From: Treponema sp. | GTDB lineage: Bacteria > Spirochaetota > Spirochaetia > Treponematales > Treponemataceae | Reading direction: 5' to 3' | Assembly: GCA_017392945.1 (NCBI GenBank) | Contig: JAFOSK010000057.1 | Span: 13,918-77,917, forward strand | DNA length: 64,000 bases | In this document: positions 38,968-50,216 of the stretch, one piece after another | Layout: every line of letters begins with the position of its first letter | Position numbering within the stretch: position 1 is the first letter of the stretch | Position numbers and translations under genes: made by a program | The notes under the pieces: generated by a model | What the model was told of the DNA's origin: nothing | Databases searched by the model: none | The model's input: only the letters and a program-made list of their open reading frames with translations

Positions 38968-40740
38968 ATGTTTACACAAGTTCTAAGAAAGTCATTAACA
39001 CTACTCTTGATTTATGCTGTTCTGATTGTCGGCATTTTTATTCTTCAGTTTAAGAATGATTCTATTATTTCAGAAAAATTCGGGAATCTCCATGTATCGT
39101 TGTTGGAATCTGTTGCAGACGATAACAGTGTTTCTCTTAAGAATCGTTTTAATATTGTTTTTAACGGGATTACTTTTTCAGGAAACGAAGAAAAAAGTGC
39201 AGTTGCAAGGATTAATTCCCGTGATCAGAAGGTTGCTCTCATTTCATGGCAGAAAATTTCTCCGCTTTCATGCGTGCTTCATTTTTCAAATGATATAGAC
39301 CTTTCTTTCTCTGTAAGTGATGAAACAGCTCATTCATACCTTTTGATTGAAGTTTCAATGCCTAAGAACATCAGCTCATTCTCTGTGCCTTATGCACTTG
39401 TTTCTGGGGCAACGATTACTTCTCAATCTGATGACCGACTGCAGATTTCCAATAAAAAGTCTGATTGGGAATTTTCTGCCGGTGACATAGAATCTAACAG
39501 TGTTGTATTCACTCATAAAAAGCGGACGGCATCTTATTCTTATTATGATAAAAGCCGCTCATTCTCATTTGATCAGATTGTTTCGCTTGACAGTGCGTCT
39601 GAATTTACATATGCAGCTGTTCTTGAAAATTTCAAAGAAAATCTTATTTCATCGTTTGTGCAGATTCCTGCTGATGCTGCTGTAATCGGTGAACAGGAAG
39701 CTGTTTCTTATGTCGCTGCTATGGCAGAAAAAGGTCGTTACAACGAAGCTTTGGATGCTGTTCCGGCAGCCTTTAAAAAGAGTACGGCACGCACATTCCT
39801 GTCTGCACCATTCTTTGATACTCTTGCAAAAATTAATGAACCTTTGCAGCTGCAGCTTAAGTCTTATGATGATCTGGTGCAGCGTGCTCTTGCCGGAGAT
39901 TCCCTGGATATCTTCAATACACGCTTTATAAGTGACTATATGATGATAAACAGTAATAAGGCTGCTGTAAGAGAATTGCTGACAAAGACTGCGGCGGCCG
40001 CACTTGATTCAATGTCTGTTCAGCAGGCTTCTGCCGTGCTCTGCGTTTATGATGATCTTGCAGAAAAGAGCTCTTCTTTGGCTTCTCTGCTTTATCCGGC
40101 AGCTATCAAGTGTGTAGAAAAAATTCAGTCTTCATGTAATCTTGATGACAGTCTTCTTACGGTTGCAGAAAAGGGAACATTCCTTTCTGTCATTCAGGGC
40201 GTTATGGTGGGAGATGCACTGCTTCGCTTTGGTAAACTTATTGAAAACAGTGATTATATTGCAGGCGGACGGGTTATAGTTGGCTCTTATCTAAAGGAAA
40301 GTTCCTCGTATGATGTACGCACTTTGGGTGAGCTTTATCCGATTGCGGTTCACGGAAATTCTTATTATCCTCATTTTGAGATCCTTGCATCTGAAGGTGA
40401 GGAATGTATTTGGGCTTGGACTTGTGCAACTAATATCACTTATACAAACGATAATGCCGGAACGGTTTCTCTTGCAATTGACTTCCCGTTGTCTTATACG
40501 CATTACATTATTGTCAACGGAATAGAGCCTTTCCGCTCGATTTATATTTATGACATTGCATTCCGCTCTGATTACCGATTTGAAACGTACAATTCTTCCG
40601 GCTATATCTATCAGCCGGCGACAAAATCGCTCCTTCTAAAATCAAGGCATAAGGCAGACAGGGAAAACATTAGGCTCATCTATACCTTGGCCGCTCAGGA
40701 AAAAGCAGAGGTCGCTGAGGAAGAAGAAGCTGCCGAGTAA
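38968..40740 (+). CDS. Hypothetical membrane-anchored protein
   Basis: 590-aa ORF with an N-terminal TM helix; no recognised motif. Confidence 0.7.
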   Translation: MFTQVLRKSLTLLLIYAVLIVGIFILQFKNDSIISEKFGNLHVSLLESVADDNSVSLKNRFNIVFNGITFSGNEEKSAVARINSRDQKVALISWQKISPLSCVLHFSNDIDLSFSVSDETAHSYLLIEVSMPKNISSFSVPYALVSGATITSQSDDRLQISNKKSDWEFSAGDIESNSVVFTHKKRTASYSYYDKSRSFSFDQIVSLDSASEFTYAAVLENFKENLISSFVQIPADAAVIGEQEAVSYVAAMAEKGRYNEALDAVPAAFKKSTARTFLSAPFFDTLAKINEPLQLQLKSYDDLVQRALAGDSLDIFNTRFISDYMMINSNKAAVRELLTKTAAAALDSMSVQQASAVLCVYDDLAEKSSSLASLLYPAAIKCVEKIQSSCNLDDSLLTVAEKGTFLSVIQGVMVGDALLRFGKLIENSDYIAGGRVIVGSYLKESSSYDVRTLGELYPIAVHGNSYYPHFEILASEGEECIWAWTCATNITYTNDNAGTVSLAIDFPLSYTHYIIVNGIEPFRSIYIYDIAFRSDYRFETYNSSGYIYQPATKSLLLKSRHKADRENIRLIYTLAAQEKAEVAEEEEAAE

Positions 40741-40816: not shown

Positions 40817-43171
40817 CTATTTAGAATAAATTGCGGCATACTGTTCCATTAGCTCATCAAATTCCTGGTCGTTGTCCGCCGTGATTGCGCAGGCATAGTA
40901 CAATGCGATTACAGATTCCGTTGTAAGGTATCCCATAGGCACTGCGCCTTCACGCCAGATTCCATGTGCCGTTACATATTGGGAAAAATCCAGGCTGATT
41001 TTCTGCTGGCTTGTACAGTAAAAGCGGATTCCGCGGCGGTTTCCTGCCAGAAGCATGTTCTTTAAAGAAAAGTCGCTGTCTGAAATATTTCCAGCTCCAA
41101 TTCCGTACATTTCCAAAAATATAGAGTGTACTGGTGAGTATTTGAGTATGTCTTTATATAAATCGCTTCTGAATCCAGGATAAAGTCGGCACATGAACAT
41201 GCGGTTGGAAGCTTCTACCAGCATTCTGCTGAGTACGTCTTTGTCCAATTCGCCGGTGCCGTTAAATGCATTTGAAATCGGCCCGCTTTCAGTATATTTT
41301 GGTTCTTCCAGATTCCAGTTGCAGAAACTTCCTGGGCGATCGAAATGCAGGTTCAGAGGTGAAAGAATTTTATCTCCGAATACAACATATACGCCGTTCT
41401 TCTTTTCTGCGGCTGTTTCTATGGCAAGTCTCAAGTTTGTTTCGGCTTCCATAGATTCCGAAGGCAAGGTTGAAGAGGCGGTAAGTACAATCGGAACTTC
41501 TGAATCTGCAAACAGCCAGTATAAAAGAGCCGCGGTATAGGAAAGCGTGTAGGTTCCATGAGTAACGACAATTCCACTGGCTGTTCCGGCATTTATGCGC
41601 AGTGCTATTTCGGAGATTAAATCAGCCCAATTGGAAGGTTCCAGCTCTTCGCTAAGATATTGCCCTGCGGACGTAAATTGAATCGGTATATCAGGGGCTA
41701 TGCGTTCGGCCATTATTTTTAGTTCAGAAGCGTCTCCACTGGAAATTGTGCCATCGTTGTGCCGTATTGCAGAAATTGCTCCGCCTGTAGTTATTACGTA
41801 AATCACGCTTATATTAAGTTCTTCCTTAAGAAGACTTTTTACAATCTGAGGGACGGCTTTTCCGCTGGTTTCCTTCATTACAAGGCCTGTAAGGAATTCA
41901 AGCGGTGGCATTTCTCCGTTCTTAAGGATTTTGCACTGTTCCGGATTTTCCTGAATTACTTTTTTGATAAACGGAAGAAGTTCCTTTTCGCTGCTCATTT
42001 CGCTTATGTTCAGGGTTTTCATCAGTTTTTCAGGGGAATGTCCGGTTTCAAAAGTCGCACGAAGCAGTTTTTTTGCGGTTGCACTGTGAATGTCGCTTGA
42101 ATCAAGTTTTTTTATGATCCAAGCAAAATTTGTTTCGGTTATCTTTGATTTTTTGATTGAAAGACCGGATTTATTTAAAAGTCTGGTAAGTTCACTTGCT
42201 ATCCAGTGAGCCGTATTAAGCGGATTTGTTCCTAGCGCGCAAGTATTTTCAAAGAAGTCTGCGCGTTCTTTTGTGTCGCACAAAAATTCTGCTCTCAGAC
42301 GGCTTACTCCGTATTGTTTTTTGAATCTCTGACGGCGCGCTTCTGGTAGTTCAAATTTTGTATCAGCGAATTTTTTTTCTGCGATTTCAAGATTTATTGT
42401 CTGCGGCGGGTTCAGATGTTCAAAGCGGGTTCTGTTTATCTGGCGTTCTTGAAAAGTTTCCGTACAGGATTTTGCTTCGTTCCAGAGTCTGCTTTCGCTT
42501 GGAATTTTTTCGCCGGCTGTAATCATGTTTTCCTGACGGGTAAGTTCGTGATTAACTGCTTTTCGTGCAAAATTAAAAGAATTGAGATTGCGGAGTTTTA
42601 CGTAATAATCAGGATGATTCGGGTATTTTGAAAGAGCGACATAAGCATTGCATCTTATGGTTCCGTCTCTGAACGAGTCGTTTGCGATGTTCAGGTATTG
42701 CGTAAGCCGCCGCAATTCTTCTAGAAAAATGTGTACTTCTTCTCCAAGCTCAAAGCTTGGCTGTGTGCGGATTCGTATGCTCGGGTTTCCTGCGCAGGAA
42801 TAGTCCATCCTTGTTGTCCCGTTTGCGTGGGTAAGCCGTCCAAGGTCTTCTTCAATCCTTACTTCTTCAATATGTATTGTCTTCTGGTGACTGTGGAACA
42901 TAAGGTTCAGCTTTCCGCCTTCGGCAATTTTTACGGAATATCCTGTAAGGTCTTTTCCGCTTTCCTGCTTTGAAACAAGGTTTGTGATGTGTTCTACGTC
43001 TGATATTGTAGAAATTTTGCATTCTAGTGCTTTTGCAAGAATGTATACCTGCTGAAGTACCTGCTCATTTATGCAGATTTTGTGATTTTTTTCGTTTGTG
43101 TAAAAAACTGATTCTACGGCCGGCAGTTGAATTCTTACTTCTACATAAACAAATGACTGGTACATACTCAC
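40817..43171 (-). CDS. GatB/YqeY-like domain fused to an L-asparaginase (GatD-like) domain; both halves degenerate
   Basis: GatB-like: 'IEEDLG', 'RNLNSF', 'ELPEARRQRF...YG', 'FLTGLVMKETSGKA.P'. Asparaginase-like: 'ITTGGAIS', 'VVTHGTYTLSYTA', 'PIVLTAS', 'LYPG', 'YGIGAG', 'LTTES'. Confidence 0.85.
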   Translation of the reverse strand: MSMYQSFVYVEVRIQLPAVESVFYTNEKNHKICINEQVLQQVYILAKALECKISTISDVEHITNLVSKQESGKDLTGYSVKIAEGGKLNLMFHSHQKTIHIEEVRIEEDLGRLTHANGTTRMDYSCAGNPSIRIRTQPSFELGEEVHIFLEELRRLTQYLNIANDSFRDGTIRCNAYVALSKYPNHPDYYVKLRNLNSFNFARKAVNHELTRQENMITAGEKIPSESRLWNEAKSCTETFQERQINRTRFEHLNPPQTINLEIAEKKFADTKFELPEARRQRFKKQYGVSRLRAEFLCDTKERADFFENTCALGTNPLNTAHWIASELTRLLNKSGLSIKKSKITETNFAWIIKKLDSSDIHSATAKKLLRATFETGHSPEKLMKTLNISEMSSEKELLPFIKKVIQENPEQCKILKNGEMPPLEFLTGLVMKETSGKAVPQIVKSLLKEELNISVIYVITTGGAISAIRHNDGTISSGDASELKIMAERIAPDIPIQFTSAGQYLSEELEPSNWADLISEIALRINAGTASGIVVTHGTYTLSYTAALLYWLFADSEVPIVLTASSTLPSESMEAETNLRLAIETAAEKKNGVYVVFGDKILSPLNLHFDRPGSFCNWNLEEPKYTESGPISNAFNGTGELDKDVLSRMLVEASNRMFMCRLYPGFRSDLYKDILKYSPVHSIFLEMYGIGAGNISDSDFSLKNMLLAGNRRGIRFYCTSQQKISLDFSQYVTAHGIWREGAVPMGYLTTESVIALYYACAITADNDQEFDELMEQYAAIYSK

Positions 43172-43311
43172 CTCTGTGCAGCATAAATTGTAAAATTTTT
43201 GTCCTGCTGCATAAAATTACTTAAAAAGTTTGAAAATTATACCGTTTTATGAAAATTTGTGATATACTTAGAAAAATTGTTGCCCGTAGCGGCGGGTGCT
43301 TAGGAGTTTTT

Positions 43312-44742
43312 GTGAACAAACATGATTTTCCAAAAATCCATTTTTATGATCAGGATTTTGTAGATATTTATAACAAGACGTGGACAATGCTCTCGGATTA
43401 TTGGATTAATCCAAAGACTGGCGAAAAAACGTCTGATGGTTATTTTATGTACCCTGTCGGAGAGAAATTAGTAATTGATCAGTTTGAGTCCATCCTCTCT
43501 TCGTTTTTCCTGGTGTATTCGAACCGCAATTACGATGCAAACTTGAACATCGATTATTTTTACAAACAGCAAGAAGAAAACGGTGCAATCCGTTGGCGTT
43601 ATGATGCGAAGACAAATGAACCAATGATTTCTCCTGATAATCCAGAAGGTGTAGGGCTTCCTTTGTTTGCATGGGCAGAATTCAATCTTTATCACAAGTC
43701 TGCAAACAAAAAACGCATAAAGGAAATTATGCCGGTTCTTCAGAAATACATTGCATGGATTGATGCAACATTCAAGCAGGAAAACGGTCTTTATGCCGTG
43801 CCGGCAACAGCAAGTACGATGTTCAATGCGCCGCGCGAAAAGGCTTATTATCCTATTGATTTTAATGCGTGCATGGCTATTAACTGTGCTCATATGTCTG
43901 CCTTGGGAGATATCCTTAATGATAAGGAACTGAGTTTCCAATATAGACGAAGTTATTTCTCTCTGAAGACACGCATTAATTCCATGATGTGGGATAATGA
44001 GACAGGTTTTTATCATGACTTGGACAAGGATTGTAATAAACTTCCGGAAAAAACAGTTGCTGGTTTCTGGGCTCTATTGGCAGAAATTCCGAGTGCTGAT
44101 AAATCTGATGCGCTCATTGCACACCTTACTAATCCGGAAACATTTGGTTCGGATCACCCTTTCCCGTCGCTTTCAGCAGACAGTCCTCTGTTCAGCAATG
44201 AAGGTGCAGGTTTTAGGGGAAGCGTTTTCCCTATGTTCAACTTTATGATTATCAAGGGACTTGAAAAATACCAGCGCTACGAGCTTGCCCGCGAATGTTC
44301 AATACGTCACTTGTATTTTGTTCTTGAAGGTCTTATGCCTACAGACGAAAAACAAAAAGGCGATGTATTTGAAGCGTATAAACCGCAGAGTGCGCAGAAA
44401 GCTGTCCTTGAAGGCGATGACAGTTTCCCAAGGGCTCATTTTCTTGCTTCAACAGGCCTTTCGACAATCGCTCTTATGATAGAGAATGTAATCGGTCTTT
44501 CTATAAGCCTTCCTCGTAAGACTGTAGACTGGATTATTCCTAACCTTGAAATAATGGGAATCGAAAATCTATCCCTTAAGAGAAACCTTATTACTATTCT
44601 GAGCAATAAGAGTCCTCGCGGATGGGAAATTCAGATGGAAAGCGAAAAACTTTATTACTTTACAATCAATATCATTGATCAGAAAAAGAAGACACTTCCT
44701 ATTCCTAGCGGAAAGTGTTCTATGCTTATTGATAAATTGTAA
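43312..44742 (+). CDS. MGH1/GH63-like (alpha/alpha)6 glycoside-hydrolase-fold protein
   Basis: 'PLFAWAE', 'IDFNA', 'MWDNETGFYHD', 'PFPSLS', 'RGSVFP', 'FEAY'. GTG start after AGGAG. Confidence 0.75.
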   Translation: MNKHDFPKIHFYDQDFVDIYNKTWTMLSDYWINPKTGEKTSDGYFMYPVGEKLVIDQFESILSSFFLVYSNRNYDANLNIDYFYKQQEENGAIRWRYDAKTNEPMISPDNPEGVGLPLFAWAEFNLYHKSANKKRIKEIMPVLQKYIAWIDATFKQENGLYAVPATASTMFNAPREKAYYPIDFNACMAINCAHMSALGDILNDKELSFQYRRSYFSLKTRINSMMWDNETGFYHDLDKDCNKLPEKTVAGFWALLAEIPSADKSDALIAHLTNPETFGSDHPFPSLSADSPLFSNEGAGFRGSVFPMFNFMIIKGLEKYQRYELARECSIRHLYFVLEGLMPTDEKQKGDVFEAYKPQSAQKAVLEGDDSFPRAHFLASTGLSTIALMIENVIGLSISLPRKTVDWIIPNLEIMGIENLSLKRNLITILSNKSPRGWEIQMESEKLYYFTINIIDQKKKTLPIPSGKCSMLIDKL

Positions 44743-48686: not shown

Positions 48687-50216
48687 ATGATAACTGTAGA
48701 AACAAAAGTCCGGCTGCCATTTTTGTGGGGACGCGCTGTCTTTAAGAAAAGTTGTTGGAATCAGATTAACCTTATTGTAGGTCCTAACGGTTCTGGGAAG
48801 ACGCTTCTTGCAGAAGAAATTTCCCGTCAATTTGAAGAAAACGGCTATAGAGTTGATTTTTTGCGTTCCGAACGCCTCAATCAGGAAGAAATCCTTGCAA
48901 AATTAAAAGAAGATTTTGTGATCCGCGAAAAAATAGAGGAAGTCCTTTCGAATATGTTCGGTAAGACAATCTGCTTTGAAGAAGGTGTGGACGGCAGGTT
49001 TGTTCCGATTGTAGTAAACAAGGCCTGGGGCGTTGAATATAATCTTAAGGAAGGTGAATGTCACGGACTAAAGGAAATACTTACTCTTTTAGTTGCTCTT
49101 TATGGTTTTGGAAACCGCGTGCTTATTCTAGATGAGCCGGAACTTCACTTGCATCCTCAGTTTCAGTCGTTTTTTATGAACGAAATCCGCAAGGCCGTTG
49201 CGCAGAACCCAGAACGTATAATTTTTCTTATTACTCATTCTCCCTATTTTATTGATCTCAGATTTGCAGAAGATCTAGCTGGTGTTATTGTATGTCATGT
49301 AAACAGGGTTCCTACAAGCATTGAGCACATGAGCGAAAAAGATGAAATATTATTCAGGCGTTTTTTGCCGCGGTTCAACACGTATCACAAGCAGTTCTTT
49401 TTTAGCGATAATCAAATTTTTGTTGAAGGATATACTGATCAGCAGATGTTTACAAATCTTTTGGGATGCGTAGACAATCATTATGGTACGGCCGGTACAG
49501 GAGTAATAGATGTTGGTGGAAAAGACGAATTGGGCGTTTTCTTTAAGGTTTGTTCGCTTTTGGGAACTGACGGGCGCATTATAACTGACCTTGATTCACT
49601 TTTTGCCGGAAAATTGAGGGATGTCGTCTGCGAAGATGAACGTCCTGCGGCTTGGCTGGAAAAACAGTTTGAAAAGCAGGCTCCTTTTTATCGTCAGCTT
49701 TTTACAAAGAGGGAATTGGAAAATCCGGTGACCCTGGAAAAACTCATTTTCAAGTTGGAGTCGTATTTGATTACGGTTGGACGTTCGGTCTGCGAAATTG
49801 ATTTTTCAATAAGCCCTGAAATTGATACATTTATAGAAAAATTAAAGGCACTTTATACAAAATACGAAAAACCGGAAGGTCTTGATACCTTTAAGGCTGT
49901 GGTTCTTATGGGAATTCTTAAGCTGGAAAACCGGCTTAAGGATATTCTGCCTATTCCGCTTGCAAGTACGGTTCCGCTTATAATCAATGCGACCTGGCTT
50001 ATTCTTGCGGCCATAGAAACTGCAAGGGTTTATATTCTGCCGATGGGCTGCATAGAGCATTATTATATTCACAGCGACGTTCAGTATATGCCGATCAGCG
50101 GGAAAGACCGTCTTTTTCATAATGAATACGAAGTTATGATGAATGAAGAACAGGCTGAATTAAAGAAAGATTATGAGCCGTTAATCGAAATCCTTAAAAG
50201 AGCATGTTCAAAATAG
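48687..50216 (+). CDS. OLD-family ATP-dependent nuclease (ABC ATPase + TOPRIM)
   Basis: 'GPNGSGKT', 'LILDEPELHLHP', 'ITHSPY'; TOPRIM 'FVEGYTD', 'DVGGK', 'ITDLD'. Confidence 0.85.
   Translation: MITVETKVRLPFLWGRAVFKKSCWNQINLIVGPNGSGKTLLAEEISRQFEENGYRVDFLRSERLNQEEILAKLKEDFVIREKIEEVLSNMFGKTICFEEGVDGRFVPIVVNKAWGVEYNLKEGECHGLKEILTLLVALYGFGNRVLILDEPELHLHPQFQSFFMNEIRKAVAQNPERIIFLITHSPYFIDLRFAEDLAGVIVCHVNRVPTSIEHMSEKDEILFRRFLPRFNTYHKQFFFSDNQIFVEGYTDQQMFTNLLGCVDNHYGTAGTGVIDVGGKDELGVFFKVCSLLGTDGRIITDLDSLFAGKLRDVVCEDERPAAWLEKQFEKQAPFYRQLFTKRELENPVTLEKLIFKLESYLITVGRSVCEIDFSISPEIDTFIEKLKALYTKYEKPEGLDTFKAVVLMGILKLENRLKDILPIPLASTVPLIINATWLILAAIETARVYILPMGCIEHYYIHSDVQYMPISGKDRLFHNEYEVMMNEEQAELKKDYEPLIEILKRACSK

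Follow-up and report, generated by a model that had tools for sequence, protein, structure and literature searches.

A 64,000-nucleotide stretch of the Treponema sp. contig JAFOSK010000057.1 (positions 13,918 to 77,917, here called the window) contains a reverse-strand gene whose product joins, in one chain, a rewritten form of the amidotransferase subunit GatB to a type I asparaginase-like domain that has lost catalytic residues. The fusion is under strong purifying selection in many treponemes. Comparison of its sequence with those of its relatives leads us to propose that the protein may be a non-catalytic asparagine-responsive regulator, with predicted ligand and tRNA binding; we give this reading a probability of about 0.4. 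The gene is likely to descend, by duplication, from an asparagine-forming GatB that already carried the predicted Asn-sensing domain, and it puts known parts to a new use, with an origin that can be traced.

The fusion protein and its two rewritten sites

The features discussed here are given below, with residues numbered throughout in the 784-residue frame of an earlier, first-pass annotation of the window (GTG at 43171 as residue 1).

40817..43165, reverse strand: class B GatB–asparaginase fusion gene, 782 aa from the ATG at 43165
43169..43175, reverse strand: AGAGGTG, resembling a ribosome-binding site, 3 nt ahead of ATG 43165 and holding the GTG of the first-pass start
42356..43165, reverse strand: pseudo-GatB cradle domain (residues 3–272) with the rewritten site, from alignment to Staphylococcus aureus GatB
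41813..42355, reverse strand: GatB helical domain and YqeY-like tail (residues 273–453), from Pfam and alignment
40817..41812, reverse strand: type I asparaginase-like domain (residues 454–784), from Pfam and alignment
43249..44742, forward strand: divergent MGH1/GH63-like glycoside hydrolase gene, a marker of the ancestral fusion locus

A single open frame of 784 codons occupies 40817–43171 on the reverse strand, in agreement with the first-pass annotation, which had described an intact reading frame with an in-frame junction near 41815. The profile search it had suggested matched all three expected families in order, GatB_N at residues 34–265 (E = 1.9e-31), GatB_Yqey at 305–452 (4e-35) and Asparaginase at 457–605 (1e-25), followed by a weak Asparaginase_C match at 659–770 (0.008), and the junction lies at residue 452/453, at about 41815. 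Its choice of start did not hold as well: translation most likely begins at ATG 43165, giving 782 aa, because the GTG sits within the AGAGGTG element and the database copies of the fusion are also 782 aa long. Two AlphaFold models were obtained, with mean predicted local distance difference test scores of 85 and 89.5, and the predicted template modelling score, which reflects domain packing, rose from 0.59 to 0.68 with a deeper alignment. Model 1 matches the whole GatB fold (Foldseek E = 5e-38; Z = 32.6 to 3kfu) and the whole type I asparaginase fold (Foldseek E = 1e-17; Z = 27.6 over 297 aligned residues of 5ot0); alignment to the type I asparaginase 4q0m gives E = 1e-37. Structural searches returned no match of the cradle other than GatB and GatE, and the ESM Atlas only the fusion family's own clusters. 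The protein falls below the curated cut-offs for GatB (269.7 versus 338 and 252.8 versus 314.8 bits), GatD (82 versus 310 bits), GatE (69.8 versus 456 bits) and AnsA, and we place it outside the functional GatB, GatDE and AnsA families. Contigs from RNA libraries of two studies cover the gene, although they carry no information on strand or level and may reflect DNA carry-over; one, from an independent library, crosses the junction (41429–41915, with eight differences).

To place the protein among its relatives, GTDB was scanned; 250 stretches were confirmed and 80 kept, all labelled Spirochaetota, comprising 76 frames of at least 600 aa and four fragments. The full-length frames divide into class A (44 of 76), found through the profile search, in which a canonical GatB site accompanies a dead asparaginase domain, and class B (31 of 76, plus the query gene), in which the GatB site is rewritten; one frame is ambiguous. 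Residue counts come from 146 sequences (42 of class A, 104 of class B), a set that omits the incomplete L110, L118 and L132 and the ambiguous L148 and in which Treponemataceae-type rows (74 in class B) were thinned by similarity.

All eight motif readings of the first-pass annotation are present in the translation: YVEVRIQL, RIEEDLG, PSIRI, RCN and KLRN in the GatB half, from which RKNYFYPD is missing, and TGGA and HGTYT in the asparaginase half. Aligned to S. aureus GatB, for whose residues we assume the accepted roles in the Mg sites and adenine pocket, the fusion has R13, R105 and R133 in place of His12, His122 and Glu150, and N175, Y177, K192 and R194 in place of Asp192, Asn194, Glu210 and Lys212, while E11, E107 and E108 (Glu10, Glu124 and Glu125) are retained. 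The cradle has also lost DYRYFPEPD and the 3-10 turn, and keeps NLNSF, R212, R228 and W230. Of the His/Glu/Glu Mg2+ ligands and the Asp/Glu second metal site, only E11 and E107 remain. In the related GatE, changing any one of its three Mg ligands to alanine abolishes both kinase and transamidase activity (PMC2330236). A check of homologues, put forward at first pass, shows that the replacements are shared: R13, R105, N175, K192 and E107 occur in 104/104 class B sequences, R194 in 103 and R133 in 99; an aromatic residue stands at position 177 throughout. Since the same replacement residues are near-invariant across the class, we read the change as fixation and not as decay. All 42 class A sequences are canonical at the corresponding positions (His13, Lys62, His105, Glu133, Asp175, Asn177, Glu192 and Lys194).

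The tail pocket of GatB recognizes the D-loop of tRNA, a turn at residues 183–186 reads the U1–A72 pair and a Lys-rich motif contacts the variable loop (PMC2811023). The fusion retains the D-loop pocket residues G429, M432, G437, A439 and P441, and the conservation of this tail, noted at first pass, extends to the whole of class B (G429 in 104, A439 in 103, M432 in 101 and P441 in 100 of 104), which also keeps the acceptor-cleft residues N195, S198, R212, R228 and W230. Retention of both sets of residues makes tRNA binding by class B plausible. The 3-10 turn reads NMEE in 41–42 of 42 class A sequences and is variable across class B, and the Lys-rich motif is already changed in class A.

Catalysis by type I asparaginases involves five residues, the nucleophilic Thr, a Tyr' from the partner subunit, a second Thr, an Asp and a Lys (PMC8256714), and the first Thr is also the nucleophile of GatD (PMC2330236). 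Mapped to positions 465, 732, 540, 541 and 609, with a one-residue gap needed to align the Lys, these read A465, Y732, T540, Y541 and H609 in the fusion protein, so that the nucleophile, the Asp and the Lys are gone; S507-E508-E509 are retained. TGGA and HGTYT are thus genuine readings of this protein, but the latter does not hold for the family, as D541Y and K609H are specific to the query subclade (20 of 74 Treponemataceae-type sequences; 53 of the 74 have Asp at position 541). In class A the nucleophile position is Ala in 40 sequences, Ser in one and Val in one, and Thr in none; Tyr', the second Thr and Asp are retained in 42/42 and the Lys in 32, with Arg in the other 10. All four remaining positions are kept in 32/42 class A and 28/30 B1 sequences, and S507, E509, G539, Q722 and Q723 are invariant in 146/146. 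PDB entries 7c8x and 5dnc are, by their titles, Thr-to-Ala asparaginase mutants with bound Asn, and the class A residue pattern is that of these crystallized mutants. The 117 ordinary relatives include 100 that are readable at the nucleophile motif, and all 100 have Thr. Because the nucleophile is already absent from class A, where the GatB site is intact, the ASPARAGINASE half of the fusion was altered before the GatB half, the two sites changing at separate times.

The full T/Y/T/D/K set is found in 8/146 sequences, all among the 74 B2 members of class B (L190:6992-9370, L191–L194, L198, P0098 and P0101); these have GGT, HGTDT, Lys and Tyr' and may represent reversion to activity. P0138, a class A protein outside the set of 42, has the first Thr and lacks the second. 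A stand-alone form of the dead domain was sought and rejected, since only three family members appeared among the 120 short matches listed, on contigs of 1–2 kb, and these are probably fragments. In the genomes scored the domain is always fused to GatB; among 36 class-level matches, 34 lie in open frames at least about 790 aa long, and in the host genome the fusion is the sole asparaginase-fold match. An unrooted tree sets the fused domains as a group of their own, apart from GatD and AnsA. In a separate set of metagenomic proteins (P0319–P0326 and P0330), AAA-type NTPase domains are fused to an asparaginase domain with intact-looking TGGT and HGTDT.

Distribution, selection and ancestry

Database searching gave 546 protein matches, and all of the 120 matches listed carry both GatB_Yqey and Asparaginase. 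The asparaginase half was matched in 95 of 251 genomes of the family, four of which are weak matches to ordinary asparaginase-sized frames, leaving 91 carriers. Carriage differs by genus, being 27/27, 12/12 and 18/19 in some and 0/26 and 0/7 in others. These counts rest on family- and class-level searches; a phylum-wide search scored few candidates per genome and under-reports. Class B is found in rumen, termite and animal treponemes, with T. brennaborense and T. phagedenis among the named records. A deeper clade, class A', includes a Candidatus Wallbacteria record, which extends the fusion beyond the spirochaetes; a metagenome scan for class A' returned no fusion locus. Over the whole gene the ratio of non-synonymous to synonymous substitution rates (dN/dS, NG86 method) is 0.037–0.125 in 10 pairs, several with dS near saturation, and it is below 0.17 in every domain with unsaturated dS. 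The range matches that of ppk (0.02–0.12); the neighbouring hydrolase gave 0.025–0.06. All values for the fusion are below 1, the bound of the dN/dS check put forward at first pass.

Class A genes lie in an operon of the form gatC–gatA–gatB::asn*–aspS(ND), encoding a non-discriminating (ND) AspRS, with gatA upstream in 43/44 loci, gatC in 37/44 and ND-aspS downstream in 44/44; the ND-aspS reference and a second copy exceed the NCBIfam cut-off. The class A protein P0128 scores 630.7 and 558.4 bits, above both GatB cut-offs (338 and 314.8). Ten of 11 class A genomes have no GatB besides the fusion; GlnRS is present in 9/11 and AsnRS in 10/11, and AsnA (2/11) and AsnB (2/10) are rare, a combination that makes the operon their likely route to asparagine. 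Two class A loci, L165 and L168 (genomes G576 and G598), are accompanied by a second ND-AspRS-like gene away from the operon, 36–37% identical to the operon type. Near class B, gatA, gatC and ND-aspS were found in 0/31 GTDB loci and 0/20 further loci, and no ND-aspS operon was seen at any Treponemataceae locus examined.

In a GatB tree of 59 rows built by a quick method, class B forms one clade (SH-aLRT 100) on a long stem; the larger clade in which it nests (99) otherwise comprises class A and the unfused GatBs of spirochaetes, and unfused catalytic copies (class S) group with the class A loci L070 and L071 (100). The working GatB of the host genome falls outside the class A/class B clade, and an origin of class B from the host's own GatB lineage was rejected (joint clade, p-AU 5.6e-6). 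Among class B genomes reached through GTDB loci (non-Treponemataceae-type), nine of 10 also have a canonical GatB; in six of eight examined this is unfused, followed by ND-aspS and located at another site. Some genomes thus hold class B and, at a second site, a catalytic operon in which gatB is not fused, and the simplest reading is that class B arose by duplication with division of labour.

The host genome (88% complete, 4.4% contamination) was checked for gatABC, asnS and glnS, as the first-pass annotation had proposed. It has a canonical gatB on contig C21, gatA and a gatC-like frame on C137, and genes for AspRS, AsnRS, GluRS, AsnA and AsnB; GlnRS was not found in this 88% complete assembly. 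With its own gatCAB, AsnRS, AsnA and AsnB, this host should not need the fusion to make Asn-tRNA or Gln-tRNA. A second gatB fragment at a contig end (C111:2745-3235), 97% identical and beside a restriction-type helicase gene, probably reflects strain mixing. Two other genomes, G303 and G341, keep class B and encode GlnRS, AsnRS and AsnA; no GatA, amidase match or canonical GatB was found in G341 or in G303, a single contig of which all but 16 kb was searched. Since class B is kept in these genomes, where no GatA or canonical GatB was found, we conclude that it does not act as a GatCAB subunit. The absence of any amidotransferase found, together with GlnRS, AsnRS and AsnA, also means that neither genome would make mischarged tRNA by design.

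The MGH1/GH63-like hydrolase gene adjoins the fusion in 36/44 class A and 20/31 class B GTDB loci and in 20/20 further class B loci. A functional tie between the two was rejected: one strong orthologue (51–85% identity) is present in 78/80 genomes irrespective of the fusion, and the two genes are not co-lost. The hydrolase gene is near-universal in Spirochaetia, occurring even in reduced genomes of 1.1–1.5 Mb, and the only two genomes without it lie outside the class. No fusion remnants were found in 10 non-carrier loci of about 4.4 kb each. The ppx/ppk neighbourhood is synteny only, ppx being absent from the fusion locus in 4/4 g5 loci. In many class B and some class A loci the fusion also adjoins the gene for a 590-aa protein (38968–40740, forward strand, in the window) that has no Pfam or NCBIfam match. 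Further along the window, 48687–50216 on the forward strand encodes a protein with an AAA_21 ATPase and an OLD-like TOPRIM domain, resembling OLD/Gabija-type defence nucleases.

Weighing possible functions

The proposed regulator would have arisen in steps. In the class A ancestor, GatCAB and ND-AspRS would usually be the sole route to new asparagine, and the asparaginase domain, in its Thr-to-Ala form, would hold Asn uncleaved and throttle the route, as end-product feedback; an Asn sensor makes sense in class A because the operon is the likely supplier of asparagine. After duplication, one copy would keep catalysis and shed the asparaginase domain (class S), and the other (class B) would retain that domain along with the body that binds tRNA. 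There, Arg and Lys would replace the Mg2+ ions beside the retained glutamates and an aromatic residue would fill the adenine pocket. The cradle could then hold a tRNA by its 3' end but not activate it, with the elbow gripped by the tail. The asparaginase-like domains would dimerize, and amino acid binding to this dead dimer, which would report the amino acid level, would switch the binding of tRNA or of a partner.

Several observations weigh against this proposal. The replacement by Tyr of the Asp that binds the amino group of the substrate, and of Lys by His, in the query subclade (20/74) argues against ordinary Asn binding there, and it is for this subclade, because of D541Y and K609H, that a sensor role is weakest. 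Class A' has HGLDT or near variants, and in the eight B2 sequences described above the asparaginase catalytic set is complete. Class B does not conserve the 3-10 turn by which U1–A72 is read, a loss that bears on tRNA specificity, and the protein has no output domain. Neither AsnA (27/28 carriers, 19/25 non-carriers) nor AsnB (20/29 and 12/28) separates genomes with the fusion from those without, and the regions upstream of asnA, compared in 21 carriers and 20 non-carriers, gave no shared RNA leader. The exact sister of class B is not settled by the tree (stem 1.04). The fusion has often been lost, only 13 of 88 genomes of its own genus carrying it, and in one copy (L010, G117:C21) the frame is interrupted by a stop codon at about residue 255 and shifted at about residue 590, which marks either a pseudogene or a sequencing error. 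Further tests for a target were negative: co-occurrence with GlnRS gave no clean split, and Rfam had no match in the window or near asnA, asnB, asnS or gatA.

The strongest competitor, though we consider it unlikely, is a ligand-blind tRNA chaperone or scaffold, in which Arg/Lys salt bridges do no more than stabilize the emptied metal site, the asparaginase fold serves only for dimerization, and the task of the protein is to bind a partner or to protect or store tRNA(Asn/Gln). It would account for the acidic E11, E107 and E108 retained next to the new Arg and Lys residues, the invariant tail pocket and acceptor-cleft residues and the persistence of class B in genomes where no GatA was found. 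The query subclade's D541Y and K609H also favour it, as does the loss of the second Thr in class A'. However, S507, E509, G539, Q722 and Q723 are invariant in 146/146 sequences and most class A and B1 sequences retain Tyr', Thr, Asp and Lys/Arg, more than dimerization by itself would seem to require. A further step down in probability is a new catalytic activity of the rewired GatB pocket that needs no metal. One example is trans-editing, in which an Arg-lined pocket would grip Asp-tRNA(Asn) or Glu-tRNA(Gln) by the carboxylate and hydrolyse the ester; alternatively, the pocket would bind a phosphorylated ligand. The pocket does shift from acidic to basic, its replacements are fixed to specific residues (99–104 of 104) and not randomized, and selection on the cradle is as strong as on the other domains. 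Yet fixed salt bridges account for this invariance without catalysis, the cradle has no structural match past GatB and GatE, and two genomes that keep the gene, G303 and G341, encode GlnRS, AsnRS and AsnA but showed no amidotransferase in the sequence searched.

Slightly less probable again is a slow or conditional asparaginase or glutaminase, tuned by tRNA on the dead GatB half. A guinea-pig asparaginase T19A mutant reportedly has residual activity, and it would fit such an enzyme that 32/42 class A and 28/30 B1 sequences keep four of the five catalytic positions, that 8/74 B2 sequences keep all five and that the host has no other asparaginase fold. Nonetheless, the query protein lacks Thr, Asp and Lys, the nucleophile position mixes Ala, Ser, Thr and Val, the Lys has become Arg in 10/42 class A sequences and ordinary relatives have Thr wherever the motif is readable; moreover, the first Thr is the nucleophile (PMC8256714; PMC2330236 for GatD). 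We regard as very improbable an active single-chain amidotransferase of the GatDE type, with the asparaginase half feeding ammonia to the GatB half. It would pair the same two folds as GatDE, but Arg occupies two of the three Mg-ligand positions, whose GatE equivalents are essential (PMC2330236), the nucleophile is absent, the scores lie under the GatB, GatD and GatE cut-offs, and relatives with an intact GatB site use GatA (43/44). Equally improbable is a decaying relic or an assembly artefact. The patchy distribution and the one broken copy could be read in that way; it is refuted by hundreds of full-length homologues (at least 120 with both domains), dN/dS of 0.037–0.125 and the invariant replacements, and the junction is spanned in an independent RNA library. 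The suggestion made at first pass that the protein is a repurposed double pseudoenzyme, and not a drifting copy, is borne out by the shared GatB substitutions, the low dN/dS and the canonical gatCAB of the host.

Known systems and significance

The closest known system is the GatCAB–aspS(ND) transamidosome of the Thermus/Pseudomonas type, which has the same three-domain GatB fold and the D-loop pocket of the tail; the class A operons mark it as a direct ancestor of the fusion. Class B differs in having lost the metal ligands, the ammonia-channel RKNYFYPD, DYRYFPEPD and the U1–A72 turn and in having no gatA, gatC or ND-aspS nearby, and the 330-aa asparaginase-like domain is found in none of the solved GatBs. 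Archaeal GatDE likewise pairs a GatB/E-type fold with a type I asparaginase fold, and the first-pass annotation had labelled the fusion GatDE-like. That kinship is rejected, since the GatB half nests in bacterial GatB, the nucleophile Thr is lost and there is no Pfam match to the GatD N-terminal domain; in addition, the fusion is a single chain and its ancestor would have taken ammonia from GatA. We therefore regard the shared pairing as convergent. Type I L-asparaginases (Thermococcales AnsA, E. coli AnsA) have the same two-domain fold and motif order, and the fusion has a natural Thr-to-Ala change at the position altered in the trapping mutants; it differs in always being joined to GatB and, in the query subclade, in also lacking Asp and Lys. 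HisZ and the HisRS-like domain of GCN2 are synthetase paralogues turned regulators or sensors, in which a tRNA-enzyme fold is similarly kept without catalysis. They derive from aminoacyl-tRNA synthetases, however, and the fusion has no kinase or other output domain.

The family is apparently undescribed. A literature search over the titles and abstract openings of the papers listed, with few subscription journals covered, gave no description of a GatB–asparaginase fusion, and it brought up neither a GatB paralogue described as catalytically dead nor feedback on GatCAB. The main text of a survey of bacterial asparaginases (PMC9500103) has no GatB, fusion or spirochaete terms, and 'asparaginase' does not occur in PMC3927822. 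Class A, an intact GatB with a dead asparaginase within gatCAB–aspS(ND), is apparently a separate undescribed variant (for example L098, L130, P0128 and P0139; L069-L154 loci). To our knowledge, neither another dead GatB paralogue nor any allosteric or feedback regulation of a tRNA-dependent amidotransferase has been described. Databases give the family automatic names only, and because class B is labelled 'asparaginase' or 'GatB', metabolic reconstructions of the treponemes that carry it are probably wrong at this gene.

The family offers a traceable series, from an active GatB with a dead asparaginase, through duplication, to two copies, one catalytic and lacking the domain, the other rewired and bearing it. 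Tentatively, and with somewhat less than even confidence, we suggest that a dead asparaginase on GatB served as asparagine feedback in spirochaetes and that treponemes turned it into a stand-alone, metal-free, Asn-gated tRNA binder or an Arg-site trans-editing factor. Class A is the best system in which to ask directly whether free asparagine regulates the transamidosome. If the proposal is true, class B would be the first regulator made from an amidotransferase, and one that works in cells without any amidotransferase.

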